From positions 32,001-96,000 of the forward strand of contig CAWJQC010000004.1 of the NCBI GenBank assembly GCA_963844965.1: a DNA stretch of 64,000 bases. Direction: 5' to 3'. A program made the translations under genes and the position numbers. Source of the DNA: an uncultured bacterium. GTDB taxonomy: Bacteria; Patescibacteriota; Minisyncoccia; UBA6257; 2-01-FULL-56-20. Positions 12,771 through 53,149 of this stretch are shown here, piece after piece. Below the pieces are notes generated by a model, which had not been told where the DNA came from, searched no databases, and saw nothing but the letters and a program-made list of their open reading frames with translations. Position 1 is the stretch's first letter. The number at the start of each line of letters is the position of its first letter.

Positions 12771-13203
12771 CTATAACCCATTCTTGTTCAAAACCTCATT
12801 CACGACTCTATCCGCTTTTCTGTTCTCCTCGCGCGGCACGTGGCGGAATTCCACCATTTTAAAGTCAAATTTCAAATTCCATACACCGACGAACAGTGGC
12901 TGCAGGTTTTCTTCCATGATCTTATACTTGCCGTTCAGTTGTTTCACCACGAGTTCGGAATCCATCCTTATTTCAACATCCGACTCCTTCGCTTTCGCTT
13001 TGCCAATGAGCTGTTTTATTTTTTTAAGCGCGAAAATGACCGCTTCGTATTCGGCCTGATTGTTGGTCTTCTCGCCTAGATATTCGCCATATTCTTTATT
13101 ATCAATCACAACCCCGATAGCGGCCGGACCTGGATTTCCCCTGGAACCGCCGTCGGTATAAACGACGTATCTTTGATTCTTTGAATAATTGACCCTTCTT
13201 CAT
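12771..13203 (-). CDS. rnhA: Ribonuclease HI. It has a 1-nt frameshift between the ATG (13203, overlapping the upstream stop as ATGA) and the YTDGGSRGNPGP motif.
   Basis: VVYTDGGSRGNPGPAAIGVVI...NNQAEYEAVIFALK...RHVPREENRKADRVVNEV. The ORF track starts only at GTG 13109. Confidence 0.75.
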
Positions 13204-14153
13204 TTTAGCCTTTCAACAACTTCCATAGCGACCCTTCCAGCGTCTTCCTTACTTTTGAAGAAAGCACCCGCGGCGCCCTTGTGGCCGCCGCCGCCGTATT
13301 TTGCCATAAGTTCACCAGCATGAATTTTTGCCTCGCGCATTCGCCAGGGATTCGCTGAAAGCCCTACCTCAAAAAGGTTGTCGCTCCTTTGCAGGCGGAC
13401 GGCATAGATGGTCTTCGGATAAAGATAGTATGGCGCGAACCGCAGCTTGCCGCTACCTGCCAATGTCAGGTCTATAAATGTCGCCTTGCCGCGAACTTTT
13501 ATGTTCTTCCGGTAAAATCTCAATCCCAATCTTATCTTTTTGCGCGCACCGGCTGCGCATTCCTGAACGCGCGGGTCTTTAGCTATTTCCCTGAGCGACT
13601 TCCGGGAAAGAAGGTCTATGAGCGGCCGGCGCGTGCTGTTATCATTGGCGTTCTTTTCAATGAAGGCGTCAATGCGGAGTGCCGGCTCCTTTACTTCAAG
13701 CGTCTGCTTGGCGGATCCATAACCCGCTCCGTCAATAATGTCCAGCCATTTCGTCAACTCCTTGAAGTGCTTGGGTGGTTTCCAGTCGAAACCGACGCGC
13801 AGTGACGCCTCGGTAAAATGGCACGCCGACTTATACGACGGATCGTAACGGCGGAACTTGGATGGTCTGAACTTTTTCCGCCAGCTTTCTTTCTGAAAAG
13901 CGGTCGGATGGTGGTCAAACCAAAAAAAAGCCCCTGGGTGGTATTGGAAATCCAAAACGATGGCCGGATTGCGCCTGCCGCGGAAGAGTTTGTGCTTCAA
14001 AAAGAATTTTTCGTCCCGCCACTGCGGTAAAATATCAAAACCGAGAGGAACATAACGCTCAATATCGTCGCCGCGGTCGCGCAAAAATGCAAGCATCACC
14101 GCCGCTGACGCCCATCCGTCAAAATCGTTGTGAAAATAGACGTCGTAAGTCAT
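13200..14153 (-). CDS. DHH-family phosphoesterase (NrnA-like, DHH + DHHA1).
   Basis: HNDFDGWASAAV, FDHHP, and the C-terminal GGGGHKGAAG. Confidence 0.75.
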   Translation of the reverse strand: MTYDVYFHNDFDGWASAAVMLAFLRDRGDDIERYVPLGFDILPQWRDEKFFLKHKLFRGRRNPAIVLDFQYHPGAFFWFDHHPTAFQKESWRKKFRPSKFRRYDPSYKSACHFTEASLRVGFDWKPPKHFKELTKWLDIIDGAGYGSAKQTLEVKEPALRIDAFIEKNANDNSTRRPLIDLLSRKSLREIAKDPRVQECAAGARKKIRLGLRFYRKNIKVRGKATFIDLTLAGSGKLRFAPYYLYPKTIYAVRLQRSDNLFEVGLSANPWRMREAKIHAGELMAKYGGGGHKGAAGAFFKSKEDAGRVAMEVVERLK

Positions 14154-14377
14154 TCTCTATTATGATAACGCCTGCCGCCCCTCCTCGCCAACTATCTGAA
14201 GTCATCGGCGAAAAATTCATAACCGCAGATTAGCACGGGCGTGGAAAGAAAATACCAGAATACCACGTCGTCTATGGGAAAAATATGGCCGAAAACAAGA
14301 ATTGGAAAGATATATTTTCCGGGTGACCAGGACCCCGTAATTTAGACACAAAGGTCGAAACAAACTACCATTGTGTC

Positions 14378-14641
14378 ATGAGCAACAAAAAAGGGCATCG
14401 GATTGCAAAGGAAGTGAAGGCGGACATCCTCCGCCGCGTGAAGGAAGAAGGCGTTTCGGTGGCCCAAGCCGCGAAGGACCACGGCTTGCACGAGTCCACC
14501 ATCTATAACTGGCTCGGAGCCGGAGCGGCAGGCGCTCCCTCGTGGAGCGAGTTCTCCCGCCTGCAGAAGCAGAACCGCGAGCTCTTTGAGGTGGTGGGCG
14601 AGCTCACCGTGAAGCTCTCTCAGGCCCAAAAAAAGAGTTGA
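14378..14641 (+). CDS. IS3-family transposase OrfA (HTH).
   Basis: RIAKEVKADILRRVKEEGVSVAQAAKDHGLHESTIYNW plus a leucine-zipper tail. Confidence 0.8.
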   Translation: MSNKKGHRIAKEVKADILRRVKEEGVSVAQAAKDHGLHESTIYNWLGAGAAGAPSWSEFSRLQKQNRELFEVVGELTVKLSQAQKKS

Positions 14642-15420
14642 CGGAGAAACGGGACAAGTCGGCCCTGGCCAGGGCCATGGGCGTCTCACGGGCATCGCTC
14701 TACTACGTTCCGAAACAGTACGCGAAGGATTGGGCATTCAAGATCCTGATCGAGGAAGAGCTGCGGCGCCATTCCTCGTACGGCTCGCGGCGCCTGGCGC
14801 AAGCCCTCCACGCGAACCGCAAACGGACCAGGCGTGTGATGAAGCTCTTTGGCATCAAGCCATACCGGAGGCGGGGCAAGAAATATCGTAAATCAAAGGC
14901 ATCGCGGGCCTTTCCGAACCTCTTACTTGCCATCATGCCCTCGTACGCGAACCACGTCTGGGCAACCGATTTCACGGAGTTCCTGTATCGCGGCAAGAAA
15001 GTGTACGTGTCCACGATACTCGATCTTTTCACGAGACGATTGATGGGCGTCCATGTGGCGTTGCGGAAAGGATCGCCCCTCACGATACAGACCCTGGCCA
15101 ACGCGCTTTTCCACCATCCGCATCCGGTCATCTTCCATTCGGACAACGGCAGCGAGTACAAGGCACGAGCGTTCACCGATACACTGGGGGACTGTGGCAT
15201 CACGATCTCGCGGTCGCGGCCCGGTGCCCCATGGGAAAACGGCTACCAGGAATCGTTCTATGACAAGTTCAAGATTGACCTCGGTGATCCCAACCGGTTC
15301 GGGACCTTCGGCGAGCTCGTGGCGGAGATCTACAGCACCTTGTGGCAGTACAACCACACGCGGATCCACTCCGCCCTCAAGATGCCGCCGTCCGTGTTTG
15401 CCGAGAAGATTGCGGCTTAA
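14638..15420 (+). CDS. IS3-family transposase OrfB (DDE integrase core).
   Basis: WATDFTEF...HSDNGSEY...NGYQESF. rve domain. Confidence 0.8.
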   Translation: MTEKRDKSALARAMGVSRASLYYVPKQYAKDWAFKILIEEELRRHSSYGSRRLAQALHANRKRTRRVMKLFGIKPYRRRGKKYRKSKASRAFPNLLLAIMPSYANHVWATDFTEFLYRGKKVYVSTILDLFTRRLMGVHVALRKGSPLTIQTLANALFHHPHPVIFHSDNGSEYKARAFTDTLGDCGITISRSRPGAPWENGYQESFYDKFKIDLGDPNRFGTFGELVAEIYSTLWQYNHTRIHSALKMPPSVFAEKIAA

Positions 15421-15472
15421 CGAAAAAAAACGGCAAAAAGCCGTCGAATCACTGTCTAAAGAAACCTATCCT

Positions 15473-15736: not shown

Positions 15737-16050
15737 ACGATTCTACCGCAAACTGGTTTTTTTTGCGGTTTTGACATGTCCATGTTTCCCAACTCTATCA
15801 CTTTAATTCTATCAGAACAGAGAAAATTATATGCATCTCGGTCTGTCCGATACTAAAACTAGGTGCGGGGAGTAGTGGACGACGTTAGAACCTGTTTGAT
15901 GGAAAATGCCAGCAAATTCAGTATCCCGAGTCTTGTGAGTTAGGTTCCCCCACCCTATCACCCACCATATCTACTCCGGTGGTTGGACGACATAAGGGCC
16001 TGTAAAAAAACCGAACATTCTTATCGCGATCAGCTTTGAGAAATTAACTT

Positions 16051-17635: not shown

Positions 17636-19514
17636 TTAAACGGTCCCTCGGGGTGACGCGCGGAACGCAGCCTCAACATCCAGGTCCTCCCAGCCGGCTT
17701 TCTTCAATTCGCCGCGAATCACGTCGTCCACAAACGCGGCGGCGCGGGCGGCCCTGATATATTCCACGAGCTCCGGATTCTGGGAACCGGCTTGGGTTGA
17801 TTTCACTTCCGCGGCCGGAGAAGCGGCGGTTGCGGCGTCCGCGCTAACTTGCCGCGCGGCTTCAGGGTTCGCCGCTGAAGCCGCTGAATTGTTTTTCTCC
17901 GCTTCTTCCCGCGTCGCCTCATGTTTTATAAGTTCTTTCTCTTCCGTCTCCAGCTTCACTATTTCCTCCTCCTCTTTTTTCATCCGCTTGCGAAGCATGA
18001 CTACGACAAACGCCGCTATTATCAGAACCAACACTCCGCCGCCCGCGATAAGCCACGCGGTGAGTCCGACTCCGCTCAGCCGCTCCTTTATGACATCCCA
18101 TGGCGTATCAAGCGACCCGCCCGCGGCGATAAGCGCCGCGCACTGCTCTATATACGGGTCAGCGTATTTGTTTACGGAGAATTTCGCGTCGGAATTCTCG
18201 GCTATCTTGAATTGCTCCGTCGCTTTCTTGCACTGCTTGGCGTGCAGAAGCGCGAGACCCTGTTCCATTGAATCGGTGAAGCCGCTTGTATCGTTTTTCA
18301 GCGACTGTGCGTCAAGCGCGGCTTTCGCCAGTTCAACCGGAACGGCGGATGCGAAATTATCCCCTAAAATGTCGCTGAGCCCCGATTCAAATGTCACCAA
18401 ACCAATGACCTCTCCGTCAGCTCCGAAGAGCGGCCCTCCGCTTGAACCTTCGGAGATCTTCGCGTCCGATTGCAATATTTTGAAATCCTTATTTTGGGAA
18501 TCTTTGATGGCGGTTATCACTCCCTGTGTGAACGTCGGCTCAAGATAATCTTGCGACCCGATACTGGGCCGTACCCGGAAAGCCAAACACGTAAATTTTC
18601 TGGCCGACAGCGGCCAACGCCGAAGCGCCGAGCTTCATGGCCGCGAGGTTACTTTCGCCAATCTTAAGAATAGCGACGTCCTTGTCGTCAAGGTTGTAGT
18701 TATCATTCACGCTCAAAACCGTTGCCGGAAACGAATCTTTGATAAGTTCGGTGAGTTTTTGTTTCGTTGATGTCGGATTCAGCACGACGACCTCCCGCAA
18801 GATGTCAAAGCGGCTGTTGGCTTCCAGGGCGGATAAAATTTTCTTTCCATATTCTTCTCCCATGCTTTCCGCATCCAGCGAGTCAATCCCTTTATCTTTA
18901 TAATACTTTTCCAAGTCCTGTATTTCATTCGGTTTCAAGGAGAACATTTCTTTGAATATCACCGACGTCATAGCCGCGCCGAGTATCGCCTGCCGCATGG
19001 TCTCTTCCGAAACAACATGGGAGTTTGTGAGGACCAGGCCGGATGGATTCACGACGAAACCGCTGCCCGCGAGATACTGCTCCGTGGAAGTGCCGTTAAC
19101 GGCGCCTGATTTCGGAAACGACACGGCAAACGTTCGGAGGTCAATGCTAAAATCGGGCACCGTTGAGGTTACCAGGAAATGCGTGAGCACCCGAACAATG
19201 GACGGCTTCGTTATGTCCGCCAATTCCTCTTCGCTCATCGCGAGCGGCTGCGGCGTGGGCATGCTCCAAAGATCGGAGAGCGACGCCGTCCCCGATCTCC
19301 CACCGCCGGGCAAACTGCGGAGAGCAACGGCGCCCAAAAACGCCGTGCTCACAAAAAGCGCGACCAAAAACAAAAAGAGCGGTAGCCATATCCGTCCACC
19401 TTCCCTACCGTTGCCGATAAATGGCATGTATAAATTATAACAAACCCGGAATGAGCCTGGCACTTCACGACAACTTAAACGTGGGTCTGAATTAACTCGT
19501 TCAAATCCAGCCAA
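17636..19514 (-). CDS. Trypsin-like (S1/HtrA-like) serine protease with a C-terminal TM anchor and a low-complexity tail. It is split into two ORFs by a frameshift near 18540-18586.
   Basis: Catalytic His (LVLTNSHVV), Asp (DVAILKI) and Ser (EGSSGGPLF), distributed across the two ORFs. Confidence 0.7.
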
Positions 19515-20919: not shown

Positions 20920-23900
20920 ATGTCCAAGTTCACGCATCTCCATATCCACTCCCACTATTCTCTGCTTGACGGCCTCACAAAAATTGACGACCTTGTCGCG
21001 CGGGTAAAGGAACTCGGAATGGATTCGGTAGCGCTCACCGACCACGGCGTTCTCTACGGCGCCGTTGAATTTTACAAAAAGGCGCGGGCCGCCGGCATAA
21101 AACCGATCCTCGGCCTCGAAACCTACGTCGCGCCGAGGGACAGGTTCAGTAAAGAAACGAGTGAGCGGTATTATCACCTCATACTCCTCGCGGAAAGCAA
21201 CACCGGCTGGAAAAATCTCATAAAACTTTCCACCAAAGCGCACCTGGAAGGGTTTTATTACAAACCCCGCGTTGACAAAGACCTTCTGCGGGAATGCCAC
21301 GAGGGACTCATCGCGCTCTCGGCATGCCTAGGCAGCGAGATCGGCCAGGCGCTCCTTGAAGGCAACACGGAAAAAGCTGAGCGCATCGCTCGGGAGTATG
21401 AAGAAATATTCGGCAAAGGAAATTATTTTCTGGAGATCCAAAAACATCCGCGCATTGCCGATTCAGAAAAGATAGAGACGGGACTCATAGACCTGTCGCG
21501 CGCTACCGGCATCCCTCTCGTCGCCACGCAGGACAGCCACTACCTCCGCTCAGAGGATGCGGAATACCACGACGTGCTTCTCGCTGTGCAGACCGGCAAT
21601 CAACTCGCCGACCAGGACCGCCTGACGATGAAAGACGATGACTTCTCCCTCCTTTCTCCGGAAGCAATGGCGGAAAAATTCGTGCGCGTTCCCGAAGCCA
21701 TCGCCCAGACTTCCGTTATCGCCGAGCGCTGCAATGTTGAACTGCAACTCGGAAAAGTTATCCTGCCGAATTTTCCCAAGCCGGAGGATAAAACCGCGAA
21801 CGAATACCTGAGCGACTTGATAAACGAAAAGATCGGTAATCGCTTCACAAAAGAAAAACAAACTCCTGAACTTTTGAAGCGATTGGAATACGAGCTCACT
21901 ACGATCGAGAAGACCGGATTCGCCGATTACTTTTTGATAGTCGCGGACATGATCAACTGGGCCAAAACCCACGGCATAGCCGTAGGCCCTGGCCGCGGTT
22001 CCGCCGCCGGAAGCCTGGCTTCGTATATCCTCGGCATAACGGACATCAATCCGCTTGAATACAACCTCCTTTTTGAGAGATTCCTGAACCCCGACAGGGT
22101 TCAAATGCCGGACGTTGACATGGATTTCGCCGACACGCGGCGCGATGAGGTCCTGGCATATCTGCGCGAAAAGTACGGCACCGACCATGTGGCGCAGATA
22201 ATAACTTTCGGAACGATGATGGCGAGAGCGGCGTTGCGGGACGCGGGCCGCGCGATGGGATTTAGCTATAATTTCTGCGACCAAATCGCCAAGCTGATCC
22301 CGTTCAATCCGACACAAGGAATGAAAGAAGGATGGCTGGACAGGTGTCTCGCCATGGTGCCGGAACTTAAATCCACCTACGAAGGCAATGTGGACGCCAA
22401 GCGCCTCATTGACACCGCACGGCATCTTGAAGGAGTGGCGCGCCACGCGTCGGTCCACGCCTGCGGTACGGTGATCTCCAAAGAGCCGCTCGTGAATTAC
22501 CTGCCGTTGCAGCTCGCGCCACAGGACAAAAACAATGTCATCACACAATTTGAGATGCACAGCGTGGAAGACCTGGGACTCCTCAAAATGGATCTCTTGG
22601 GACTCAGGAACCTCACCGTAATAGAGGAAACCGTACGCCTCGTGAAAGACACGCGCGGCGAGGAGTTGAAAATTTCCGAACTGCCGCTCAACGACAAAAA
22701 AACATTTGAACTTCTGCGGGCGGCGAACACCACGGGCGTCTTCCAGTTCGAAAGTTCCGGCATGAAACGCTATATGAAGGAAATTGAACCGACAAGCATT
22801 GAAGACCTAATCGCCCTCGTCGCTCTTTTCCGCCCCGGCCCGATGGAACTTATTCCGTCCTTTATCAATCGCAAGCATGGGCGGGAAAAAATCACATATC
22901 TTCATCCCCTGCTTGAACCAATCCTAAAAAACACCTACGGCATCGGCGTTTATCAGGAACAAATGATGCAAATCGCCCGCGACCTCGGCGGCTACACGCT
23001 CGCGGAAGCCGACACCCTGCGGAAAGCGATCGGCAAGAAAATAAAAAAACTTCTGGACGAACAGAAAGAAAAACTCATAAGCGGCATGCGCAAAAAAGGC
23101 ATACCGCAAAAGACGGCGCAAGCTATCTGGGAACTCTTCCCACCTTTTGCGCGCTACGGTTTCAACAAATCGCACGCCGCCTGCTACGCCCTGATCGGCT
23201 ACCGGACTGCATATCTCAAAGCGCACTATCCGGAGGAATTCATGGCGGGACTCCTCAATTCCGAGCTGAGCGATATTGACCGCATCTCGGTTCTCATAGA
23301 AGAAGCGAAGCAGTCCAACATCGGGATACTGCCGCCGGACATTAATAAAAGTTTCGTAAATTTCACACCAGAGGGAGAAAAAATCAGGTTCGGTCTGGTA
23401 GCTGTGAAAAATGTCGGCGAAGAGATAGCGAAGAACATCATAGAAGAACGGATCCGCGGCGGCCCGTTCAAGAATTTTGAGGATTTCCTCTCGCGGGTTC
23501 AGCACAAAGACCTGAACAAAAAATCCCTGGAGTCGCTCATAAAAGGCGGCGCGTTTGACTCGCTTGGCGTGGAGCGCAATCAGGCCCTCCAAGGAATGGA
23601 GGATGTGCTCAGGTTCGCGAACGTTTTCCGCAAAGGCGCAGCATCCATGAATGGCAGAAGTACTTCCCTCTTCGGTGTGAGCACGCCCAAAGCTTCGTTA
23701 AAATTGAAAATTGTTCCGCCGGCGACAAACGAGGAAAAGCTTGCCTGGGAAAAGGAACTCCTCGGATTCTACCTGTCCGAGCATCCTCTGAAGGCCTACG
23801 AGAAAAAAATAAACGGCTACAACGCGAAGCCGATATCCGAAGTGCGGAAGATAACGAACGGCCAGCTTACGGTGCGGACCGCGGGCCTTGTCTCACAAAT

Positions 23901-26823: not shown

Positions 26824-26885
26824 GATAGAAAATTAAAAAATTTAAAAATCAAAATGCAAAATTTGGGTGTCCTACGGACCAGATT

Positions 26886-37756: not shown

Positions 37757-38168
37757 TTATTTACTAATGACCTTGCTTTTGAACGGCAGTTTATATCCGG
37801 CGAGGCGCAGGGCTTCCTTTGCCATATCCCCGTCCACGCCGTCTATTTCAAATATAACCCGACCGGGCTTCACGGGGAATACGTAGTGGTCAACGCTTCC
37901 TTTCCCGCCGCCCATGGTGGTTTCCGGCGGCCGCATGGTGACCGGCTTATCCGGGAAAACGCGTATCCAGAGCCGGCCGCTGCGCTTCAAGTGATTCGTA
38001 ATGGTTTTCCTCGCAGCTTCAATCTGCTTGGAATTCAACCACGACGGCTCAAGCGCCTTCAGACCGTACTCGCCGTAATTCAACCCCAAACCGCGCGTTT
38101 CCACCGGCGCGCTTGCGCGACCTGCCCTTTTGCCACTTCCTATGTTTTACTTTTTTGGGAATCAACAT
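37757..38168 (-). CDS. rplP: 50S ribosomal protein L16, with a frameshift near 38105.
   Basis: The N-terminus [23 protein letters not shown] is in another frame from [17 protein letters not shown].... Confidence 0.8.
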
Positions 38169-38253
38169 GGTTTTATAAATTCGAAACTTAAAAATCAAAA
38201 GGCAAAAGTGGGATTAAAAAGTTTTAAATTTTGACCTTTGATTTTGTTATTTG

Positions 38254-39806: not shown

Positions 39807-39882
39807 AATGATAAATTTTCAATTTCCAATTTTCCAATTTCCAAACGTTTGGAAATTCTGAACTTGGAATTATTTTCTCCGT

Positions 39883-40695
39883 TTAATTATAAGTTTTGCT
39901 CGACCATTTTTTCTTATTGCGGGTCTTGTGCCCGCCGGTAACCTTACCCCACAACGTTTTTGGTTTTCTCGTGCCGCGCGGCTGTCTGCCCTCGCCGCCG
40001 CCGTAGGGATGATCAACCGGATTCATGGCTGTGCCGCGGACGGTCGGCCTCACGCCAAGCCAGCGCGAGCGGCCGGCTTTTCCTATTGTAACCAAATTAT
40101 GCTCGGGATTGGAAAGTTGTCCGATGGAAGCGAAGGAGTTCCAGGAAACCCTTCGTATCTCGCCGGAGGACAACTTCAGGTCCGTATAGCCATCGGCGTT
40201 CGCGAGGACCTCCACGTAAGAACCGGCGGAACGGGCCAGCTTCCCGCCCACGCCCGGCTTCAATTCTATATTATGTACTTGGTAGCCAACTGGAATATTC
40301 TTCAATCTTAACCTATTTCCGATTTTAAGAGGCGCGGTATCGGACGTCACGATGGTATCCCCGACCGCGAGCCCCTGAGCCGCGAGAACGTAGCGGCGCT
40401 CGCCATTGGCGTATAAAACCCTGGCGATGAATGTGGTTCTGTAAGGATCATATTCCAAAGTTTCAACCTTGGCCGGCATATCCGGGAATTCGCTCTGCAC
40501 GAAATCTACCATCCTGTACAGCTTTTTGTGACCGCCGCCCTGATGGCGCACCGTGATTCTTCCCTGCGAGTTCCTGCCCGCGTGGTCCTGAAGGCGCCTA
40601 AGCAGCGGCTTATACGGTTCTGTTTTTGTAAGCGCACCATAATCGGGTACCGTCATCTGCCTGCGTCCCGGAGTTGTTGGCTTGTAAGCTTTCAT
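39883..40695 (-). CDS. rplB: 50S ribosomal protein L2.
   Basis: ...GGGHKKLYR...HPYGGGEGR. Confidence 0.9.
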   Translation of the reverse strand: MKAYKPTTPGRRQMTVPDYGALTKTEPYKPLLRRLQDHAGRNSQGRITVRHQGGGHKKLYRMVDFVQSEFPDMPAKVETLEYDPYRTTFIARVLYANGERRYVLAAQGLAVGDTIVTSDTAPLKIGNRLRLKNIPVGYQVHNIELKPGVGGKLARSAGSYVEVLANADGYTDLKLSSGEIRRVSWNSFASIGQLSNPEHNLVTIGKAGRSRWLGVRPTVRGTAMNPVDHPYGGGEGRQPRGTRKPKTLWGKVTGGHKTRNKKKWSSKTYN

Positions 40696-42172: not shown

Positions 42173-42407
42173 AACTTAATAAAAATCCGCCCAAGCACAC
42201 CCGGGCGGTCCGGCTGTCCTTGTGAAAACGTTCTTAATTATTGTCCAGAACGTCCATTAAAGAGACAAGCTAATACTACGCCGGAATGCCTGGAACGTCA
42301 ATAGCACCCCCTCCACAAGCAAAATCGGCCTGATTTTGCCGCCTTGCCTTCTAAAATGTCGGTAAAATAAAAAGCCGGGCCGTTAGAACTTCAGCCCGGC
42401 AACTTGC

Positions 42408-43511: not shown

Positions 43512-43690
43512 ATCTGAAGCAACACTTCCTGGGAAATGCCTATTCGTCTGCCTTTCAGCAGACCGTCTCCTGGGAAACGTGGATTAGCGCATTTTCAAAG
43601 AACATGCACCGAACAAATCATAAGCAATGCGGACTTCTAAGTCAAGCGCATCGTAGATGCGGCCGACACCGAAAATCTTCCGTTCCCAAT

Positions 43691-44695
43691 TTACTGTGCC
43701 ACCATAAGCGTCCTCCTTATTGAGTCAAACTGATTAAGCAATGCCGTGCGGTCAAATTCATGGACAACGCCAGGCGGATAGTTATAAATATCCGTGGAGT
43801 GTATGAGATAGCGCACCGCGAGGCAGGGATTTGTGCCGGGAACGGCCCAGACTTGTTCTTCGTAAAAATTGCCCGCCGCCCCTTCGGTCGTCGTAGCAAC
43901 GGAATACTCCGCGCCGCCGTCGGTCACATTCTCTGCGACCAGATTTTGCCGGTCAAGAAAAGGAAGCGCGCTGCAATCCTTTATGTTCGGAGTTTCTTCA
44001 ACCGACACGCCCGTGTCGTAGTGTGAAAGATTGGTACCGGTCGCCATCGCGGCGGGAATAACAAATTTGACGCCGCTGATATCCTTGCCCGGGCCGAGTT
44101 CCTGATACTTATACGAAGCGTCAACGGAGTAGCCCACGGGATAACGTATGGAAAAACCCGCCGTTCCGCTTGCGTAAGTTTGCGGCAAACCGCCCGAGTC
44201 TGGCGCAAGCACAATACAGCCAACGTAATTTTTCTCTTCGTTATTCTCAAAAACGAGCGCGCCGTTGCCCTTGCCCCAGAAAACGAACGACTCGTCACTG
44301 TTGGCGTAACGTATTCCGTCCGCCGATATTGTTTGCGGCAAAGTGAATCTGCGCCCGTCGCTTAAAACCAAGGCAACGCTCCCACCGGGAACCGGCGGCT
44401 CGCCGGGCTTTACGGGCGGCGGAGTTCCCTTGTAAAAACTTGCGTCAATCGTCTTTCCGCCATTGCACAGATAGGTAACTTCATTGATAGGCGCGGGCGC
44501 CGCGGACTTTTCCGGCGCGCCGCGGCGGGCGTACCAAAACCACACGCCAAAAAACACCAAGATGACCGCGAGCACCGCAAACAATATTTTAATATTCCTA
44601 AATTCCATGATTTTAGTTTTTAGAAACGCCCGATCCGATAAGCACAGGTGGCACTCTGTGGAGATAGCGAGAGGCACCAGTTGCAACTTCGCCAA
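43691..44695 (-). CDS. Membrane-anchored protein with an MliC/PliC-like (lysozyme-inhibitor) domain plus an unknown C-terminal domain.
   Basis: The probable start is MEFRNIKILFAVLAVILVFF (44608). Motif region CNGGKTIDASFYKG...VALVLSDGRRFTLPQTISADGIRYANSDESFVFWGKGNGALV...C. Confidence 0.5.
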   Translation of the reverse strand: MAKLQLVPLAISTECHLCLSDRAFLKTKIMEFRNIKILFAVLAVILVFFGVWFWYARRGAPEKSAAPAPINEVTYLCNGGKTIDASFYKGTPPPVKPGEPPVPGGSVALVLSDGRRFTLPQTISADGIRYANSDESFVFWGKGNGALVFENNEEKNYVGCIVLAPDSGGLPQTYASGTAGFSIRYPVGYSVDASYKYQELGPGKDISGVKFVIPAAMATGTNLSHYDTGVSVEETPNIKDCSALPFLDRQNLVAENVTDGGAEYSVATTTEGAAGNFYEEQVWAVPGTNPCLAVRYLIHSTDIYNYPPGVVHEFDRTALLNQFDSIRRTLMVAQ

Positions 44696-44706
44696 ACCAA
44701 CCGCCG

Positions 44707-45018
44707 TCAGCTGTAAGCCAAAATGATAAACACAATCGCGACGATTACGACGAGGAACGTAATGGTTGCCGCAACAAGATTTATCGCTTCCCTTTTTTTG
44801 CCGTTAAAGTACCAAAGAATCGGCCGGCCGAAGATAACAATGCCCATTACAGCCGCGGAAATCACAAAAACAAGAAGAAACGCCGAGACGACCAGCACCC
44901 CGCCCCCGGGACCGAAAACGTGGTTCGCGTTTGAAATCAAAAGAGCGACGAGCCCCACGTAGGCCGCGGCGGCAAGCGCGTTAAGCAAGCCGTAGCCGAT
45001 TATTCGTTTTGTTTTCAT
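44707..45018 (-). CDS. Small 3-TM membrane protein, hypothetical.
   Basis: 103-aa hydrophobic ORF. Confidence 0.4.
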   Translation of the reverse strand: MKTKRIIGYGLLNALAAAAYVGLVALLISNANHVFGPGGGVLVVSAFLLVFVISAAVMGIVIFGRPILWYFNGKKREAINLVAATITFLVVIVAIVFIILAYS

Positions 45019-45030
45019 TGTATAGAAATA

Positions 45031-46422
45031 TTACTGCTGGCATGCCTGGCCCGTCAGCCACGGTCCACTCGTGGCGTTGGGATCGTATGGCACGAGCGGC
45101 ACTACGCACGACCAGGAAAGGCCAGTGGATTTGAGCACGATTTTGCTATCGCTTCGGTCCGTTATTACGCTACGCAGTCCGATGGTAATTGTCGGGTCAA
45201 CGCCGGAAATGCCCATGCGGTGCACCCCCAATATTTCAATCGGGAGCATTCTCTGGGTGGTTGGTCCTAATGGGAAGGAAAACGGAACGTTAATGTTCTC
45301 TCCGCTGTGCGTGAAGGGAATAGATGGGTCAGCCGCCAGATTTTCCAGGTGATAATCGGTTGACGGATCATCAGCTACGCGCAAAACCAGCGGCGAATCG
45401 GCGACATTCAAAGCCGTGTAAGAAATATCAACGTTTAGTCCGGTAATCGTAATCTGGTTGGAATCTATATTGTTGAAAACAAGACCACCATTGTCCGTAC
45501 TTTCCTGAAGCACGGTGCTCATGGCCGACGGCGAAGTGACGATCAGTTGGCCGGGGTCGGTCGTAAAGGAAAAATTTTTGGACTGAACCCGCTGGTCGTT
45601 TCCGGAAGTCTGAGCCAAACCGATGGCACAAGCGTATGAAGTTCTCACATCGAACATCGGATTTTGGTCGGTATCGTCGGAAGACGGGATATTCGGCGGC
45701 GGATTGCAGGAGAACGAAACGAAAAAACGCGGCACCGAACCGCTGCCGCCGATGGAAGTTTCGTCCAAACCCCATATTACACTGCTTTTTGTGCCTGCGA
45801 ACGTGGTAAATTTTGCTTCGTATGGGCCGTCAAACCGTTCGTTCAAAGAAAGCGTGGTGGCGTCCAAAAACGTCCGCGCCGTAATTACCGCCGGGACGGA
45901 AGCGGCGGCTGTTGTCGGGGTCGTAGCGGATTTTGCCTGCGCTCCGGCCTTTTTACTTGTAGTTTTCCCACCGGACTGGGTGGTCGCGGCGGCCGTCGTG
46001 GCGGTCGTTGTGGAAAACGGCACATCCACGCTTGGCAATAGTCCCGCCACAATCTCCGTCTGTGCATCCAAACTCGCGACGCTTGAGGTGGCAACGCTTG
46101 AAGTAGCCGTGGAAGTTGAGAACGCAATAACACTTTGCATCATGGCAATCTCTTTCGGGACGCCTACTGCCATGCCCAGGCGTGCCTGCATGCCCATAAC
46201 TTCAATCGTCTGTTTATAGGAAACAATTTCCGTCAAAGTTTTCGCCGCGAAAACTCCTCCGAAGAGGATTGCCGCGAGCCCGACAAGAAAAGGAACTCTC
46301 GTGCTGAACAACTTCAAGATTTTTCCGGAGATATTTCCGCCGCCCAAAAAAATGGCCTTGAAGCCGCCGGGTCTGGCGGGCTTTTCACGGCGCACAATAT
46401 CTTGTACGCGCCTGTTATTCAT
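45031..46422 (-). CDS. Large N-terminally anchored secreted/cell-surface protein with a Ser/Thr-rich linker.
   Basis: 463 aa. TM near the N-terminus, a TTTATTAAATTQSGG linker, and a Cys-containing C-terminus. Confidence 0.45.
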   Translation of the reverse strand: MNNRRVQDIVRREKPARPGGFKAIFLGGGNISGKILKLFSTRVPFLVGLAAILFGGVFAAKTLTEIVSYKQTIEVMGMQARLGMAVGVPKEIAMMQSVIAFSTSTATSSVATSSVASLDAQTEIVAGLLPSVDVPFSTTTATTAAATTQSGGKTTSKKAGAQAKSATTPTTAAASVPAVITARTFLDATTLSLNERFDGPYEAKFTTFAGTKSSVIWGLDETSIGGSGSVPRFFVSFSCNPPPNIPSSDDTDQNPMFDVRTSYACAIGLAQTSGNDQRVQSKNFSFTTDPGQLIVTSPSAMSTVLQESTDNGGLVFNNIDSNQITITGLNVDISYTALNVADSPLVLRVADDPSTDYHLENLAADPSIPFTHSGENINVPFSFPLGPTTQRMLPIEILGVHRMGISGVDPTITIGLRSVITDRSDSKIVLKSTGLSWSCVVPLVPYDPNATSGPWLTGQACQQ

Positions 46423-46717
46423 TTGACGTATTGTTATATATTACCTCAGGACGCGTGGGGATTCAAACGTAGGCAAAATCGCAGTTTTGTTGCGGCAGGG
46501 CAAATCACCCGGAGCGCTGAAGGATTAAAAAACAAAGCCGCAACCACGACTGTTCACTTTTTATGAACAATCATTTTATCGCTTGTTAAAAATTGAAACT
46601 GCCGACCGTGGATACAAAAATCTTTCAAAAGCCCGAAAAGAAAACACCCCGAAAACGAATTGGCTTTCGGGGCGACTTGTTAGAAAAAAACAGGAGTCAG
46701 GATTCTATTCTCTGGTT

Positions 46718-47162
46718 TCAATTGAGGCCCGTTGCGGCAAGAAGTGTGCGGCGAATCACCGAATCGTGTCCCATCTCATTGTATGTGGCCGCCTCTATAC
46801 GCCTCTCCAAAACAGCAGGAAGCCCAAGTATTTCTTTCTTGACCTCCCGTTCGGCAGAGCTCGCCACACCTTCCGTAATCATCGCGTATACCGCAGTCAA
46901 CGGATAGTAGTCATTTTCCGCGGTGATGATGACACCGAGCGGCGTCAGCTTCCATCGGTGGGGTCTTTGCGCAGATACTCAAGAATACGCTGTAGTCGTA
47001 GATATCGCGCCCCAACAGTGCGCCGAAGAACAGCAACAAAACACCCTGAATTCCTACGACCACGTGATGACCTTGTATTTGATCTTTTGAAAAAAGAGCG
47101 AAAGCGGTGCATATTCCACCAAACACCAGCAGCACGACAAGCGATGGCTTAGCGCCCTTCAT
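46718..47162 (-). CDS. Hypothetical membrane protein, probably one gene split by a frameshift.
   Basis: ORFs 46911-47162 and 46718-46900 are collinear. Confidence 0.3.
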
Positions 47163-47434
47163 ATACCCCCCCTTCCTCTTTTTTATCTTTGGCCTATCCA
47201 GCTGGCCTCAACCTAACACAGCGAAAGTTATTAGTCAAATGCGGCGGCTTTTTATAACTTGCGCGCTGATCACGGCAAAAATCTGCCGCCGGCCGGGAAT
47301 GCGGGGGTTTAAACGAGGTCCAGCTGGTCCTCGGCCACAGGGTTTTAGAAAACCAATTCAAAACTGCCCTTTCCTGCGCTTCGCCGAAGGCTTCGGCAAG
47401 GCGAGCGGGCGGTGGTGAAAAAAATTACCTAGTT

Positions 47435-47782
47435 CTATTTGCCGTCGGCGCTGCTGGCCGGAAACTCGGAAGACGCGTCTCCGTCGTTCATCCATTGCCA
47501 AATTTCGGCTCGGCGCTTTTCGGCGCCGGGAAACACGTCATCGGGTATGGCAATACGCCGCAATTCTTCTTCGGTCAAGCTGCTGAGGTTAACCGACGAG
47601 GGGTCTTTGCCTAAAAGAGATTTGAGCGTTTTAAGGCTCGCTTTTATCCGTTTCGGGGCGAGAGCGTCCTTATTCCACAACTCTGAATCTTTTCTAATTG
47701 CGTCCAAATTTTCGTGCGCCAGGGCGATCCTGTCGTTCCTGGAGAGTTCGTTCCCGCCAATCTTATCTGCAGGTTCTGGCAT
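47435..47782 (-). CDS. Hypothetical protein.
   Basis: 115-aa ORF. Confidence 0.35.
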   Translation of the reverse strand: MPEPADKIGGNELSRNDRIALAHENLDAIRKDSELWNKDALAPKRIKASLKTLKSLLGKDPSSVNLSSLTEEELRRIAIPDDVFPGAEKRRAEIWQWMNDGDASSEFPASSADGK

Positions 47783-47841
47783 AAATTTATATTACAACAA
47801 TTTAATTTCTAAGTCCAAGCCCTGAATTAACAGAGAAATTC

Positions 47842-47870
47842 AAAACCGCCTTTTCGGGCGGCTTTGTTTC
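47842..47870. terminator. Bidirectional terminator hairpin downstream of rpsJ.
   Basis: AAAAccgccttttcgggcggcTTTGTTT. Confidence 0.5.
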
Positions 47871-47885
47871 TGCGTAATTCCGCGT

Positions 47886-48236
47886 AGTTCCGCGCTTAGA
47901 CCATTTTGATTTCCACATCTACGCCAGCCGGTAAATTCAGATTGCTCAGCGATTCCACGATTTTCTGACTGGGATTCAGTATTTCCACGAGGCGCTTGTG
48001 GACGCGGAGCTCAAACTGCTCGCGCGAGTCCTTGTGGACGAATGTTGAACGATTTACGGTGTAGCGCTTAATCTCGGTCGGCAGCGGAATCGGCCCTACG
48101 ATGCGCGCGTCCTGCCTCTCGGCGGCTTCAATAATTTGCCGCGCCGAATTATCAATCAGCTTGTGATCTGTATGACTTGATTCTCAGCCTGATTTTTTGC
48201 GGAAGGTCCGCTACTTTTTTGGCCATTATTTTTTCC
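47886..48236 (-). CDS. rpsJ: 30S ribosomal protein S10, with a 1-nt frameshift near 48165. It is absent from the ORF track.
   Basis: [19 protein letters not shown] then shifted to [41 protein letters not shown]...[13 protein letters not shown]. Confidence 0.8.
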
Positions 48237-48537: not shown

Positions 48538-49740
48538 TTATTTCAGTATCTTAGTCACCGCTCCTGCGCCGACCGTCTTGCCGCCTTCGCGGATGGCAAA
48601 ACGCTGTTTTTCTTCAAGCGCGACCGGGAAATGAGTTTCACGGTGAGTTTAACGGTGTCGCCCGGCATGACCATTTCCATGCCTGCCGGCAAGGGTCACT
48701 TCGCCCGTAACATCGGTCGTCCTGATATAGAACTGCGGCTTGTAGCCGTTGAAGAACGGCGAGTGGCGGCCGCCTTCCTCTTTTGAAAGCACGTAAACCT
48801 CGCGCTCGAATTCCGTGTGCGGCGTGACGCTGCCCGGCTTCGCGACAACCTGCCCGCGCTCCACGTCTTCTTTCTTCAGGCCGCGGAGCAGAACGCCGAC
48901 GTTGTCGCCCGCCATGCCTTCGTCCAAGAGTCTTATTGAACATTTCAATGCCCGTGACGACGGTCTTCTGCCGTCGGCCTGCAGGCCGACGATCTCCACT
49001 TCTTCGTTCACTTTCACCTTGCCGCGCTCCACGCGGCCGGTCACGACCGTGCCGCGTCCTTCAATCGAGAAGATGTCTTCGATCGGCATAAGGAACGGCT
49101 TGTCGAAGTCGCGGACCGGATCGGGAATGAATGTCATCCACCGCTTTGATAAGGTCCAAGATCGGTTTCGCGTCCGGGTCGTCGGCGATTTCGCGGCCAA
49201 CGCTTTCAAAGCCGAACCGCGGATGATCGGAGTCGTGTCGCCCGGGAATTCGTATTTCTTCAAAAGCTCGCGGACTTCGGACTCAACGAGATCAATGAGT
49301 TCCGGATCGTCCACCTGATCGCACTTATTAAGAAACACGACGATGGTCGGCACGCCGACCTGGCGGGCAAGCAAAATGTGCTCGCGCGTCTGCGGCATCG
49401 GGCCGTCGGTCGCGGCGACGACCAAAATCGCGCCGTCCATCTGCGCGGCGCCCGTGATCATGTTCTTGATATAGTCGGCGTGTCCCGGCGCGTCAATGTG
49501 CGCGTAGTGGCGCTTCTCGGATTCGTACTCCGAATGGTGCAGGGCGATCGTGATGCCGCGCGCCTTTTCCTCCGGAGCGTTGTCAATTTGGTCCACTCTC
49601 TCTTCTTTCTTCGTCAGACCCTTCAAATGCAAAACGTGCATAATCGCGGCGGTCAGGGTCGTCTTGCCGTGGTCAACGTGGCCGATCGTGCCGATGTTCA
49701 TGTGCGGCTTGGCCCGGTAGAATTTTTCTTTTTCAGCCAT
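48538..49740 (-). CDS. tuf: Elongation factor Tu, with at least four 1-nt indels (near 49185, 49150, 48690 and 48600).
   Basis: [14 protein letters not shown]...DAPGHADY...NKCD. The C-terminus ...[51 protein letters not shown] can only be reconstructed by switching frames. Confidence 0.85.
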
Positions 49741-49864
49741 GGTTTTATTATTTTATTTTTATTTATTTTTTTAGTGAGAACCTGGCCTGATGGATATCGC
49801 GTATGAAAAGCCCCAAACCAATCGACCGGGGCCGCGAACACATCATCGGACCTTATAATGCTAG

Positions 49865-49894
49865 ATTATATACCATTCCCCCAACTGCTGTCAA
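49865..49894 (-). promoter_or_regulatory. tuf promoter (TTGACA-18-TATAAT on the minus strand).
   Basis: rc TTGACAgcagttgggggaatggtaTATAAT, ~125 nt upstream of the tuf ATG. Confidence 0.5.
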
Positions 49895-49980
49895 TTGCCA
49901 TTGTGGAATGATTGTGGACGGCGAAAGGGGGCAGGATTTGGACAAATCATAGATAGATAGCATGAATTAATTTATTACTT

Positions 49981-50040
49981 ATTAACGGATTAACGAATTG
50001 CGAATTGAATCCGATGCGTTAATACGTTAATTCGTTAATT
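49981..50040. repeat. Array of TTAACG half-sites (three direct 8-nt repeats plus inverted copies) upstream of the tuf promoter.
   Basis: attaacggattaacgaattgcgaattgaatccgatgcgttaatacgttaattcgttaatt. Confidence 0.5.
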
Positions 50041-50050
50041 TTAATAGAAT

Positions 50051-50088
50051 AAAAAACCCGCCGACGCTTACACCTAACGCGCGGCGGG
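50051..50088 (-). terminator. Intrinsic terminator after the 50101-50904 gene.
   Basis: cccgccg...cggcggg hairpin followed by a T-run on the minus strand. Confidence 0.55.
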
Positions 50089-50100
50089 CTCGTTCAAGAC

Positions 50101-50904
50101 TCATTTCCCTAGAGCGGAAAACGCCTCGTTGCCGGGATACTTTCTATGAAGGTAATCGTGGATATTAGCTTTGTCATCTGCGGTATATTGGCAGGCGTTT
50201 TTCTTGTCCGTGATTATCTTCAAAATCACGAACCAAACGTCGTCGGCGTACATACCGCCGTCCAGAGCCACCGATTCGAATATTAATTCCCGGCCGCGAT
50301 AGTCGTTGTTCGGAATGCCGAACAGTGTTGTCACCACGGGATGCGACGACGCCCTATAGTTCGTAAGGCCGAGAAGGAATTTCGCGCCACGGTACTTTGA
50401 GGCGGAAGCGACGGCAACGGCGGACTGCAAGGTGTTTTTTGCCGCCCACCACGAGCCGCAGCCATACAACAGAACTGCCTTGGTATATAGAAGATTCGCC
50501 TCTACATACTGATAAAAATCAATCTGCTTGCCGTTTCCTATTTTCTTATCAGCCTTGTTGATGCCCACATCAAGCAGCTTGAAAAAATCCGCGCGCGGGC
50601 CGTCCTCCAATTTAGGCGCGTCCTTTTTTTGTTCGTGCCGAAGCCGGAAAAGCCAGCTCAAAGATAGCCGCAGTTCACCGACGGGATCGTCCGGCTCCAT
50701 TTCCGCGTATTTTCTGAACTTGGCGTCGGCGCAGTTATAATCGCTGTTGTAAAAACAATTCAGGCCCGCCTCAAGCACAGCACGGCTCTCGGGCCTCATC
50801 TCACGGTCCGAGATAGAATCCGCAGAAAAAACCGGGGCAGCCGAACCCGAGAAGAGACACACCGACATAAAAAAGATGAGCATCCTCGTTCTCTTCGCGC
50901 CCAT
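50101..50904 (-). CDS. Secreted hypothetical protein (signal peptide) inserted between fusA and tuf.
   Basis: MGAKRTRMLIFFMSVCLFSGSAAPVFSA.... Confidence 0.45.
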   Translation of the reverse strand: MGAKRTRMLIFFMSVCLFSGSAAPVFSADSISDREMRPESRAVLEAGLNCFYNSDYNCADAKFRKYAEMEPDDPVGELRLSLSWLFRLRHEQKKDAPKLEDGPRADFFKLLDVGINKADKKIGNGKQIDFYQYVEANLLYTKAVLLYGCGSWWAAKNTLQSAVAVASASKYRGAKFLLGLTNYRASSHPVVTTLFGIPNNDYRGRELIFESVALDGGMYADDVWFVILKIITDKKNACQYTADDKANIHDYLHRKYPGNEAFSALGK

Positions 50905-51044
50905 TTTTCTCCTTTCAACGGCAAAATTTCAACGCAAGCCCATCAGCTACGAAGCATTATACGGAAATACTTCATAAAAGTCAAACAAATTGCCAAATTG
51001 CCCCGAGGGCGCAAGAGAACGCGACCAGGATCTCCGGCAAAAAA

Positions 51045-53149
51045 TTACCGTTTTTTGCCTTCGATAATCAACTGCGCAATGTTCTGCGGCACTGGCTCAT
51101 AATGGTCAAATTCCATCGTGAACGCTCCCCTGCCTTGCGTCATGGAACGCAACTCGGTCGCGTAGCCGAACATTTCCGCGAGCGGAACTTTGGCGTCAAT
51201 CACTTTCACGTTGGGCCGGTCGGAAATTTCCTCAATCCTGCCGCGCTTGGAGTTCAAGTTGCCGCTCACCTCGCCCAAAAATTCTATCGGGATGATAACC
51301 TGAAGCTTCATTATCGGCTCCAATATGACCGGCTTCGCGCGCTTCGCCGCTTCCTGCAGGGCGATGGAGCCAGCAATTTTGAAAGCCGCCTCCGACGAGT
51401 CAACTTCATGGAAAGAGCCGTCATAGAGCGAAACTTCAAGGTCGGTCATCGGGTAGTGGGCAACGACCCCCTTACTCAATGCTTCCACCACACCTTTTTC
51501 CACCGCCGGGATGAATTCGTTCGGAATGATCCCTCCCTGATATCGTCTATGAAAACAAATCCCTTGCCGCGCTCCAAGGACTTCACGCGCAGCCAGACAT
51601 GTCCGTATTGTCCGCGGCCGCCGGATTGCCTGATATATTTGCCTTCCGCCTCCGCTTCGCCCATAATCGTTTCTTTATAGGCAACCTGCGGCCGCCCCAC
51701 CGAACCCTCAACACCGAACTCCCGCTTCATCCTGTCAACAATAATTTCCAGGTGCAACTCGCCCATGCCAGAAATAATCGTCTCGCCAGTTTCCAGGTCG
51801 CCCGCCACGCGGAAAGTCGGGTCTTCTTCCGCCAAGCGGTGCAGGGCAATGCTCATTTTTTCCTGGTCGGCTTTCGTCTTCGGCTCAATGCGAATGCCGA
51901 TCACCGGCTCGGGGAATATGATCTTCTCAAGCACTATCGGCGCGTCGGGACTGCAAAGCGTGTCGCCGGTCGTCGTATTCTTCAAACCGACGATCGCCGC
52001 GATATCTCCGGCATGCACTTCCTCCATTTCTTCGCGGTGGTTGGCGTGCATCCGCACCACGCGGCCGACACGTTCCTGCTGGTCCTTCTTGGAATTCAAA
52101 ACGTACGTGCCGCGCTTCAAAACGCCGGAATAATTCCGGAAATAGGTTAAAGTGCCGACGTACGGGTCTGTCGCAACCTTGAAAGCCAGCGCCGAGAACG
52201 GCTCTTCGTCCTTGGGGTGCCGCACGATATCGGCGCCGCTCTTCGGGTCAATGCCCTTAACCGGAGGAAGGTCCGTCGGCGCGGGCAAATATTCCACAAC
52301 CGAGTCAAGCATAAATTGCACGCCTTTGTTTTTCAGGGCCGAACCGCAAAGCACCGGCACAATTTTGTTGGCAATAACGGCTTTGCGCAAAACGCGGCGC
52401 AAATCTTCAATGTCAAGCTCAGTACCATCCAAATACTTGGTCATCAAGGCATCGTCATTGTCCACAATGCGTTCCACAAGTTCATGCCGCGCCTTCTTCA
52501 CGTGCACTTTCATATTTTCCGGCATCGGAATTTCTGTAATCTTTTCGCCATGTTCACCCTCCGAGCCGTACGCCTTTTCGGTTAAGAGGTCTATCATTCC
52601 CACGAATTCACCCTCAAGGCCGATGTTCAACTGCAAAGGCAGTGCGTTCGGCGTGAGCCGTTCTTTGATTGACTGCAAACTTTTTTCAAAGCTCGCACCC
52701 AAGCGGTCAAGTTTGTTAATAAAGCAAATCCGCGGCACGTGGTACTCATCGGCATAGCGCCAGTTCGTTTCCGACTGCGGCTCAACACCTGCGACGCCAT
52801 CAAAGACGACAACCGCGCCGTCCAAAACGCGGAGCGAACGCTTCACCTCCACCGTAAAGTCAATGTGCCCCGGCGTGTCAATCAAATTTATCATATGCTC
52901 AAATTTTTTGTCGCCCTTGCGGTAAGTCGGAATCCAGAACGCCGTCGTTGCGGCGGAAGTAATCGTAATTCCCCTCTCACGTTCCTGCTCCATCCAATCC
53001 ATCACCGTGTCGCCCGTGTGCACCTCGCCGATTTTGTGACTGACGCCCGTATAAAAAAGCACCCGTTCGCTCACGGTGGTTTTGCCGGCATCTATATGGG
53101 CGATGATGCCGATGTTACGGACCTTCTCGACAGGATACATTCTAGGCAT
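51045..53149 (-). CDS. fusA: Elongation factor G, with a 1-nt frameshift near 51520 splitting it into two ORFs.
   Basis: [25 protein letters not shown].... The C-terminal ORF 51045-51503 continues ...[27 protein letters not shown]. Confidence 0.85.

Follow-up and report, generated by a model that had tools for sequence, protein, structure and literature searches.

Single-nucleotide frameshifts interrupt core translation and secretion genes in a stretch of DNA from an uncultured bacterium, which raises the question of whether the organism carries broken genes or whether the deposited sequence misrepresents intact ones. The window (the whole stretch of DNA analysed, 64,000 nucleotides) is from a Parcubacteria-type Patescibacterium contig, and the G+C content of the genome is about 50%. 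A first-pass annotation of this DNA had reported frame breaks in ten named loci and preferred indel errors in the assembly as their cause. Frameshift-aware alignment finds 10 of these 10 loci broken, and the preferred cause is borne out by independent Logan contigs, intact relatives, repaired proteins free of decay and a lack of slippery motifs at the sites. From these comparisons we conclude that the frameshifts are very probably consensus errors of the deposited metagenome-assembled contig, stemming from sequencing or assembly, and that in the Patescibacterium itself the genes tuf, fusA, secY, greA and rnhA and those for ribosomal proteins are almost certainly intact.

Detection and density of indels

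Frame breaks were called by frameshift-aware alignment of proteins against the DNA with up to four references per gene, and calls were kept where at least three references agreed (for tuf, eight references were used). The aligner was written because plain tblastn hides the tuf indels: it crosses the short out-of-frame stretches as one HSP with 75% identity, masking the indels, and was rejected for detection. Against intact orthologues, we identified at least 18 1-nt indels between 13.1 and 51.6 kb, and all sites in coding sequence fall in minus-strand genes. Coding sequence with homologue support amounts to 26 kb and contains seventeen coding indels, or 0.65 per kb. As a control, the identical pipeline was run on 28.8 kb of the relatives L164, L082 and L001 and yielded 0 reproducible events. 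The indel density is well above the chance expectation, and far beyond chance.

After repair, the product of each of the 12 affected genes can be aligned over its whole length with intact homologues, at 63-93% identity, and the sense-strand alignments revealed no in-frame stops in the broken genes. The first-pass annotation had proposed a second genome of the lineage as a check; relatives proved intact and in frame at every site, including those of the same genus (L164, L081) as well as L082, L083, L166, L167, P0244, P0249 and P0265. Outside 12.7-53.2 kb, where detection is weaker, approximately 9 kb of genes showed no break. A reference-free codon-usage frame plot made only the switches in the protease, greA and fusA visible, the genome being weakly biased and the method insensitive. 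As a rough positive control, MAG loci with Flye-style names (L048-L063), whose sequencing platform is our assumption, gave 6 events in 72 kb versus 0 in 49 kb for other assemblies, these being multi-gene regions in which the calls are unreliable.

Affected genes

The gene tuf (48541-49740, minus strand) is an indel hot spot (P about 2e-5) that holds a third of all sites, clustered in its C-terminal half (48622..49192). MAFFT nucleotide alignment to the intact tuf of L082, L083 and L001 places, all on the minus strand, a deletion at 49187, an insertion of A at 49132, a 2-nt insertion at ~48975 that is equivalent to a 1-nt deletion, an insertion of A at 48931, an insertion of C at 48693 (CC to CCC) and a deletion of C at 48628 (CCCC to CCC), and the frameshift-aware alignment to eight references agrees with these placements. 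The gene had been described as broken at four sites; it is indeed broken, but nucleotide alignment brings the count to six. The six sites fall into three pairs of opposite sign, spaced by 44-65 nt, and one of the indels generates a stop at 48649. Once repaired, EF-Tu has 93% identity to P0001 and P0002 over 100% of the length, and only 2 of its 399 residues do not occur in any of the 120 homologues nearest to it; both of these fall in variable columns. Two local explanations were tried and rejected. Foreign chimeric DNA between the paired indels is not indicated, the divergence from relatives there being no greater than in the flanks, and a slippery site at 48628 fails because the heptamer-like TTTCCCG is out of register and CCC is no known shifty triplet.

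The second elongation factor gene, fusA (51048-53149, minus strand), carries a 1-nt deletion within 51528-51544, in GATATCAGGGAGGGATC, which the frameshift-aware alignment puts at 51537. Three-frame translation shows that this deletion leaves EF-G as two ORFs, one of 557 aa and one of 152 aa; the repaired protein has 79% identity to the EF-G of L113 over residues 2-703. In secY (31903-33172, minus strand), a 1-nt insertion within 31955-31969 (GCGC[T]TGGAG, extra base in brackets), 20 codons ahead of the true stop, yields a false 473-aa ORF instead of a 423-aa protein. The extra T is visible in nucleotide alignment to L164 and L167, repaired SecY has 93% identity to the intact P0244 by frameshift-aware alignment, and the cluster at ≥90% identity that contains the public 473-aa product includes intact 423-aa members.

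Among the ribosomal-protein genes, all on the minus strand, rplN (36841-37207) has a 1-nt insertion within 36997-37009, in GAGTCCCATAAGG, that reads either as CC to CCC or as an added A. Repaired RplN has 92% identity to the intact 122-aa P0249, and the site was also aligned to the nucleotides of L166 and L164; the Logan contig L168 ends beside it, at 37010, and matches the window perfectly up to there. An extra C at 38106 (38101..38112; GCGCGC[C]GGTGG) in rplP (37757-38168) is called by four references and lacking from L168. In rpsJ (47899-48226), four references agree on an extra A at 48169 (48163..48174; TAC[A]GAT) outside any homopolymer, and the repaired product has 93% identity to that of L083, with nucleotide alignment to L083 and L082. 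Two neighbouring sites were absent from the earlier list: an insertion at 39894 (39889..39901; AAA to AAAA) in the C-terminus of rplB, called by four references (39891-39897) and lacking from L169, and a deletion at 39867 (39863..39875; TTT to TT) in the rplB-rpsS spacer just past the rplB stop, where L169 has an extra T. The latter, found in a gene-independent comparison over 4.8 kb, shows that indels also occur in non-coding DNA.

The remaining genes, again on the minus strand, lie mostly at the other end of the affected region. An extra A at 13168 (13163..13174; AAAGAT[A]CGTCG), identified with the Logan contig L165, falls 12 codons past the ATG of rnhA (about 12771-13205; RNase H / RVT_3 domain), and the downstream ORF alone carries positions 35-138 of the Pfam RNase_H profile. 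A Trypsin_2 (S1-type) serine protease is split into ORFs at 18540-19514 and 17636-18586 by a 1-nt insertion within 18554-18575, placed by Pfam and frame reading: the C-terminal part of the upstream ORF matches profile positions 39-93, and the N-terminal part of the downstream one matches 86-144. The greA gene (26367-26829) has a 1-nt insertion within 26526-26547, put at 26523-26544 by alignment to four references, between its N-terminal and C-terminal domains, with the GreA_GreB C-terminal domain in the downstream fragment; repaired GreA shows 71-74% identity over its full length. A 148-aa membrane protein with two TM segments is divided between ORFs at 46911-47162 and 46718-46900, with the break at 46956..46985. 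The intact 148-aa homologue P0265 (69% identity, 99% coverage) extends across both ORFs, and its alignment resolves the break into two 1-nt deletions near 46978 and 46964, ~14 nt apart.

Apart from tuf, the first-pass annotation had put breaks at about 13150 (rnhA), 18560 (the protease, where the split Pfam profile agrees), 26540 (greA), 31955 (secY), 36985 (rplN), 38105 (rplP), 48165 (rpsJ) and 51520 (fusA, where several references agree), and every one of these corresponds to an indel located above; the frameshift it thought probable in 46718-47162 is real and consists of the two deletions.

Independent contigs and the public record

Four Logan contigs from run ERR10755942 (L165, L168, L169 and L170), a run of which we found no mention in the literature, cover 4.8 kb of the window at 99.65-100% identity. 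Of the 18 sites, four fall within these contigs (13168, 38106, 39894 and 39867), and at 4 of these 4 the contigs have no indel. Over 1204 columns, the base at 13168 is the sole difference between L165 and the window, and L170 is identical to the window. Besides the base at 38106, L168 has 99.65% identity over 1148 columns, and its three substitutions within 1.1 kb affect variable residues only. The Logan contigs could come from a very close sister strain rather than from the window's own strain. Because these independent assemblies of the same organism are free of the indels, we favour consensus error as the explanation.

The broken products are also found verbatim in a public protein collection, namely those of tuf (363 aa), fusA (557 aa), secY (473 aa), rplN (79 aa) and greA (107 aa), all from one NCBI/ENA contig of 216,488 bp, and the DnaE of the window is 100% identical to P0121. 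Since the broken ORF products stand verbatim in the public collection and trace to a single contig, the errors belong to the deposited assembly.

Error signature

The earlier statement that several sites lie in short homopolymers holds for about 6 of the 18, which are clear run-length changes (≥3 nt), but at least four insertions of A (13168, 48169, 48931 and 49132) have no adjoining A and lie outside homopolymers. Two further sites double a single base, the remaining ones being ambiguous. No site has a homopolymer longer than 4 nt, and insertions are somewhat commoner than deletions. A homopolymer signature of the 454/Ion type accounts for only part of the errors. The errors are strongly clumped: five neighbouring gaps are shorter than 70 nt (P about 6e-5). 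The corresponding close pairs are 14-65 nt apart, and opposite signs occur in four of these five. Neither this clumping nor the tuf hot spot is predicted by simple random error.

Indels that fragment genes are well documented for long-read assemblies (Kastor, PMC12007338; an ONT R10.4 evaluation, PMC9262707). As in those cases, conserved genes of the window are cut by 1-nt indels into neighbouring ORFs that differ in frame, repair gives full-length proteins, the sites are partly homopolymeric and the breaks are gone in an independent assembly. Unlike in those cases, many sites in the window are non-homopolymeric, with four isolated A insertions, the close pairs are often of opposite sign, and a third of the indels are in tuf. 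We propose that single-base insertions and deletions would have entered the consensus during sequencing or assembly, the source probably being an indel-prone assembly that was long-read, low-coverage or poorly polished. The errors may have arisen in short patches, and tuf, the most conserved gene, may be the worst affected because its consensus is blurred by reads of related populations.

Alternative explanations

Another reading, which we regard as improbable, is that the consensus has caught true variants from a sub-population that is defective or in the minority, or has merged co-occurring strains into a chimera; the indels would then be neither base-calling errors alone nor what a viable cell carries as its genotype. 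The three substitutions in L168 imply that more than one strain is present, the errors come in clumps and often in opposite-sign pairs, and they concentrate in tuf, the gene likeliest to recruit reads from a related population. Mere mixing of in-frame alleles, however, does not produce 1-nt indels. Moreover, the only difference between the window and either L165 or L170 is the single L165 indel, and the sequence enclosed by paired indels diverges from relatives no more than its flanks do.

Highly improbable, and largely refuted, is the reading that these are genuine pseudogenes of a lineage or strain in genome decay, with working copies of the genes located elsewhere or coming from a host. The genomes of Patescibacteria are reduced, these bacteria are considered host-dependent, and the public record does contain the broken ORFs. 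Against this, the genes show neither in-frame stops nor excess substitutions, as the two unusual residues of repaired EF-Tu illustrate, a like indel lies in intergenic DNA at 39867, and both the independent contigs of the same organism, at all four testable sites, and close relatives are intact. Six core genes for translation and secretion (tuf, fusA, secY, rplN, rplP and rpsJ) are broken simultaneously; these are single-copy in most bacteria, and loss of all of them is incompatible with viability.

We find it scarcely credible that the indels are genuine in the Patescibacterium or its dominant clone and that a novel, motif-less recoding or editing corrects +1 and -1 shifts alike, keeping EF-Tu, EF-G, SecY and the ribosomal proteins functional and leaving the opposite-sign pairs as its footprint. 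If true, genuine frameshifts would mean that an uncultivated phylum has a new system of recoding, but the evidence is strongly opposed.

Recoding by known mechanisms has precedents in IS3 orfAB, prfB and dnaX and in poly(A) slippage in insect endosymbionts, and the window itself contains a textbook example. An IS3-family transposase on the plus strand (14378..15420; Pfam HTH_Tnp_1 in orfA, rve and rve_3; NCBIfam transpos_IS3) has an orfB that matches positions 104-362 of 369 of the transpos_IS3 profile, and orfA and orfB overlap at A_AAA_AAG (14626-14632) in the orfA register, with orfB in the -1 frame. Judged by its motif, this is the only plausible genuine programmed frameshift in the interval. 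The indel sites resemble it in that a single protein is encoded by overlapping ORFs whose frames differ, but they differ in lacking a slippery heptamer, in shifting in both directions and in affecting genes never recoded in relatives. Across the 18 site contexts, we found no in-register X_XXY_YYZ heptamer and no CUU_UGA-type (prfB-like) motif. In reduced endosymbiont genomes, transcriptional slippage at long poly(A) tracts restores the reading of frameshifted genes, and it needs A/T runs of ~8 nt or longer. The window likewise has 1-nt frameshifts in essential genes of a small-genome bacterium, but no long poly(A) run occurs at any indel site, all runs being ≤4 nt in a genome of balanced G+C. 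That the organism decodes across the indels, whether by programmed ribosomal frameshifting, by transcriptional slippage or by RNA editing, is extremely improbable. Corrections of both +1 and -1 would be needed, up to six in one mRNA, the sites lack conservation in orthologues, one indel is intergenic, and independent contigs are free of the indels.

Consequences for annotation

About 0.5-0.7 indels per kb are present in the surveyed region of the contig, and a similar load is probable for the MAG as a whole. At this indel density, gene calls, pseudogene counts, completeness estimates and inferences of 'missing' or 'truncated' proteins are unreliable. Other oddities in the window are an N-terminally short prfA, a partial tRNA and an RNase P RNA with a score barely at threshold, which should not be taken as biology before polishing. 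Public protein collections already hold fragments of this kind, such as the 363-aa 'EF-Tu' and the 473-aa 'SecY'.

Detection of frame breaks

The window has a G+C content of ~50%, and the majority of its genes, including the str/S10/spc ribosomal cluster, secY, adk, map and greA, lie on the minus strand. By the repaired EF-Tu (the tuf product after indel correction), its nearest relatives are Patescibacteria/Parcubacteria genomes, with 83% identity to the related locus L001 in a search among species representatives and 93% identity to two Liptonbacteria-type homologs (P0001 and P0002) in a large protein collection. EF-G and EF-Tu are already scattered across several frames in a three-frame translation. 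Plain tblastn reads through the short out-of-frame tuf stretches as one alignment and hides the shifts, so we wrote a protein-versus-DNA aligner that tolerates one missing or extra nucleotide and applied it to every gene with up to four orthologs each, drawn from ~160 related loci. In all, the window has 17 coding events in 26 kb of homolog-supported coding sequence, and the same pipeline found 0 reproducible events in 28.8 kb of three control relatives (L164, L082 and L001). No event was identified by the aligner in 23 further genes (~15.8 kb, including the 3.2-kb dnaE). Outside 12.7-53.2 kb, where detection was less sensitive, Pfam domains in ~9 kb of genes were fully covered with no break.

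The first-pass annotation had listed 1-nt frameshifts in rnhA, an S1-type protease, greA, secY, rplN, rplP, rpsJ, tuf and fusA, and the aligner, split profiles and nucleotide alignment bear out this list with slight shifts in coordinates. Reproducible events on the sense strand were insertions in greA (~26540), secY (31963), rplN (~37003), rplP (~38106), the rplB C-terminus (~39894) and rpsJ (48169), a deletion in fusA (51537), and six sites in tuf (48628-49187). For the S1-type protease (~18562), the Pfam Trypsin_2 profile is split such that positions 39-93 lie at the end of the upstream ORF and positions 86-144 at the start of the downstream ORF, and in the rnhA ORF the RNase_H profile finds no match for its first ~34 positions. 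A frameshift considered only probable in 46718-47162 proved to be real, as the fused query retrieves an intact 148-amino acid homolog (P0265) that covers 99% of it, and alignment to this protein requires two deletions 14 nt apart (46978 and 46964). The tuf gene is indeed frameshifted, but at six sites rather than the four originally proposed: when the gene is aligned at nucleotide level with three intact relatives, deletions fall at 49187 and 48628, insertions at 49132, 48931 and 48693, and a 2-nt insertion with the frame effect of a 1-nt deletion near 48975. Sites in rplB and in one intergenic region, as well as a second deletion in the membrane protein encoded at 46718-47162, had not been listed previously.

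Origin of the indels

The products of the broken ORFs occur as exact entries in the public protein collection (a 363-aa tuf, 557-aa fusA, 473-aa secY, 79-aa rplN and 107-aa greA product), all from one 216,488-bp contig, indicating that the indels were already in the deposited assembly. P0121, a protein 100% identical to the window's DnaE (20920-24117, plus strand), is likewise encoded on a single NCBI/ENA contig of 216,488 bp. The decisive comparison is with Logan assemblies of run ERR10755942, from which some of the window's intact proteins are known as well; four Logan contigs of this run could be compared with the window directly. L165 (1203 bp) differs at a single base, an A that the window adds at 13168, 12 codons into rnhA. 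In L168 (1147 bp), the additional C of rplP at 38106 is missing and three substitutions are present. L169 (1131 bp) shows one substitution and two indel differences: the window's surplus A at 39894 in rplB is missing, and directly past the rplB stop, at 39867, there is a T that the window lacks. The fourth contig, L170 (1353 bp), covers a region without a suspected error and is identical to the window. All four indels that could be checked against these independent, same-organism data are thus absent there, one of them in non-coding DNA.

Two biological causes were weighed against assembly error. If the indels were real and decoded by an unfamiliar mechanism, both +1 and -1 corrections would be needed across the sites, six of them in the single tuf message, and a stop at 48649 lies inside one of the shifted tuf stretches. 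Around the sites there is neither an in-register X_XXY_YYZ heptamer nor a prfB-like motif, and no run exceeds 4 nt. We consider such decoding highly improbable. A textbook programmed -1 frameshift site, unlike the flagged sites, does occur inside the flagged interval: in an IS3-family transposase (14378-15420, plus strand), orfA (HTH_Tnp_1) and orfB (rve) overlap at A_AAA_AAG (14626-14632). This heptamer lies in register at the 3' end of orfA, and orfB is read in the -1 frame. Nor does gene decay fit, with relatives in frame at every site (including same-genus contigs L164 and L081 and 93%-identical tuf loci), no in-frame stops in the sense alignments of the broken genes, and a repaired EF-Tu that does not look like the product of a decaying gene given that just two of its residues are unseen in the 120 closest homologs, both at variable columns. 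These data support the reading preferred in the first-pass annotation: the frameshifts are almost certainly an assembly artefact without biological novelty, and their sole import is caution about the present MAG and about the fragmentary proteins that have entered databases from it.

Error profile and clustering

The indels comprise ~11 insertions and ~7 deletions. Clear homopolymer changes are found at 39894 (AAA to AAAA), 39867 (TTT to TT), 48693 (CC to CCC) and 48628 (CCCC to CCC), and probable ones at 46964 (CCCCC to CCCC) and 51537 (AA or GGGG one shorter). A single base is doubled at 31963 and 38106, and an A is inserted between other bases on the coding strand at 13168, 48169, 48931 and 49132. 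Such a mix departs from a pure homopolymer (454/Ion) signature and is better matched by a noisy long-read consensus; gene fragmentation by such errors in long-read assemblies has been documented (PMC12007338, PMC9262707). Each of the four clear non-homopolymer insertions adds an A on the minus (coding) strand, and all four window-versus-Logan substitutions (38079, 38007, 37825 and 39744) are to A in the window on the coding strand (three G>A and one C>A), a bias that is possibly a systematic error signature.

The events are also clustered. tuf holds 6 of the 17 coding events where ~0.5 would be expected (P ~2e-5; ~7e-4 after correction for 37 genes), and in five cases neighboring events lie less than 70 nt apart, compared to 0.5 expected (P ~6e-5). 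In four of these five close pairs the two events have opposite signs, which preserves the downstream frame. The opposite-sign pair at 39894/39867 is shown directly to be absent from Logan contig L169, so the pairing belongs to the artefact and not to evolution. We hypothesize that the consensus has slipped out of register locally, over short stretches, and that tuf may be worst affected because reads from related populations would be recruited in consensus polishing, tuf being the most conserved protein-coding gene.

Other features of the window

The 16S rRNA gene (1-2074, minus strand) spans 2074 nt compared to a 1533-nt model and thus carries ~540 nt of insertion, as is common in Patescibacteria. 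With indels this frequent, its sequence may hold errors too. The RNase P RNA (11101-11510, minus strand) scores 100.2 bits against an Rfam gathering score of 100, which may reflect a divergent Patescibacteria form or damage by the same indel errors. The prfA ORF (RF1, PKT motif; 5240-6054, plus strand) is just 239 aa long and aligns to RF1 models from position ~104 on, so that the N-terminal domain is missing. The gap between prfA and a divergent response-regulator gene is only 210 nt, and a 22-codon ORF directly upstream (MNKIILEIRAGTG...) is similar to prfA's own start. This arrangement could be a real truncation, a duplication or a misassembly.

The ribosomal cluster is broken in 42200-47900, where ~5.7 kb of non-ribosomal genes, including one for an MliC-domain protein, lie between rpsJ and rplC; the break after tuf-rpsJ is also present in relatives L082 and L083. 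A 267-aa secreted-protein ORF (50101-50904) lies between fusA and tuf (49750-51040). The spacer separating rpsC from rplP is only ~90 nt long in the window (38169-38253); the same-genus relative L164 carries an inserted dCMP/cytidine deaminase gene at this place (L164 4447-4851).

Finally, a perfect inverted repeat of 13 bp, CCCTCCCACCTTT / AAAGGTGGGAGGG, flanks a tRNA-Arg(TCG) (55830-55903; region 55814-55975, plus strand). This tRNA is followed by a second, partial tRNA-Arg(TCG) (55915-55967), undetected by ARAGORN, which has the same anticodon arm and is missing the 5' acceptor strand. A large serine recombinase (Resolvase, Recombinase and Zn_ribbon_recom domains; 56495-57886, minus strand) is found ~500 nt downstream of the tRNA pair. 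This region is probably the boundary of an integrated element by which part of the tRNA was duplicated.
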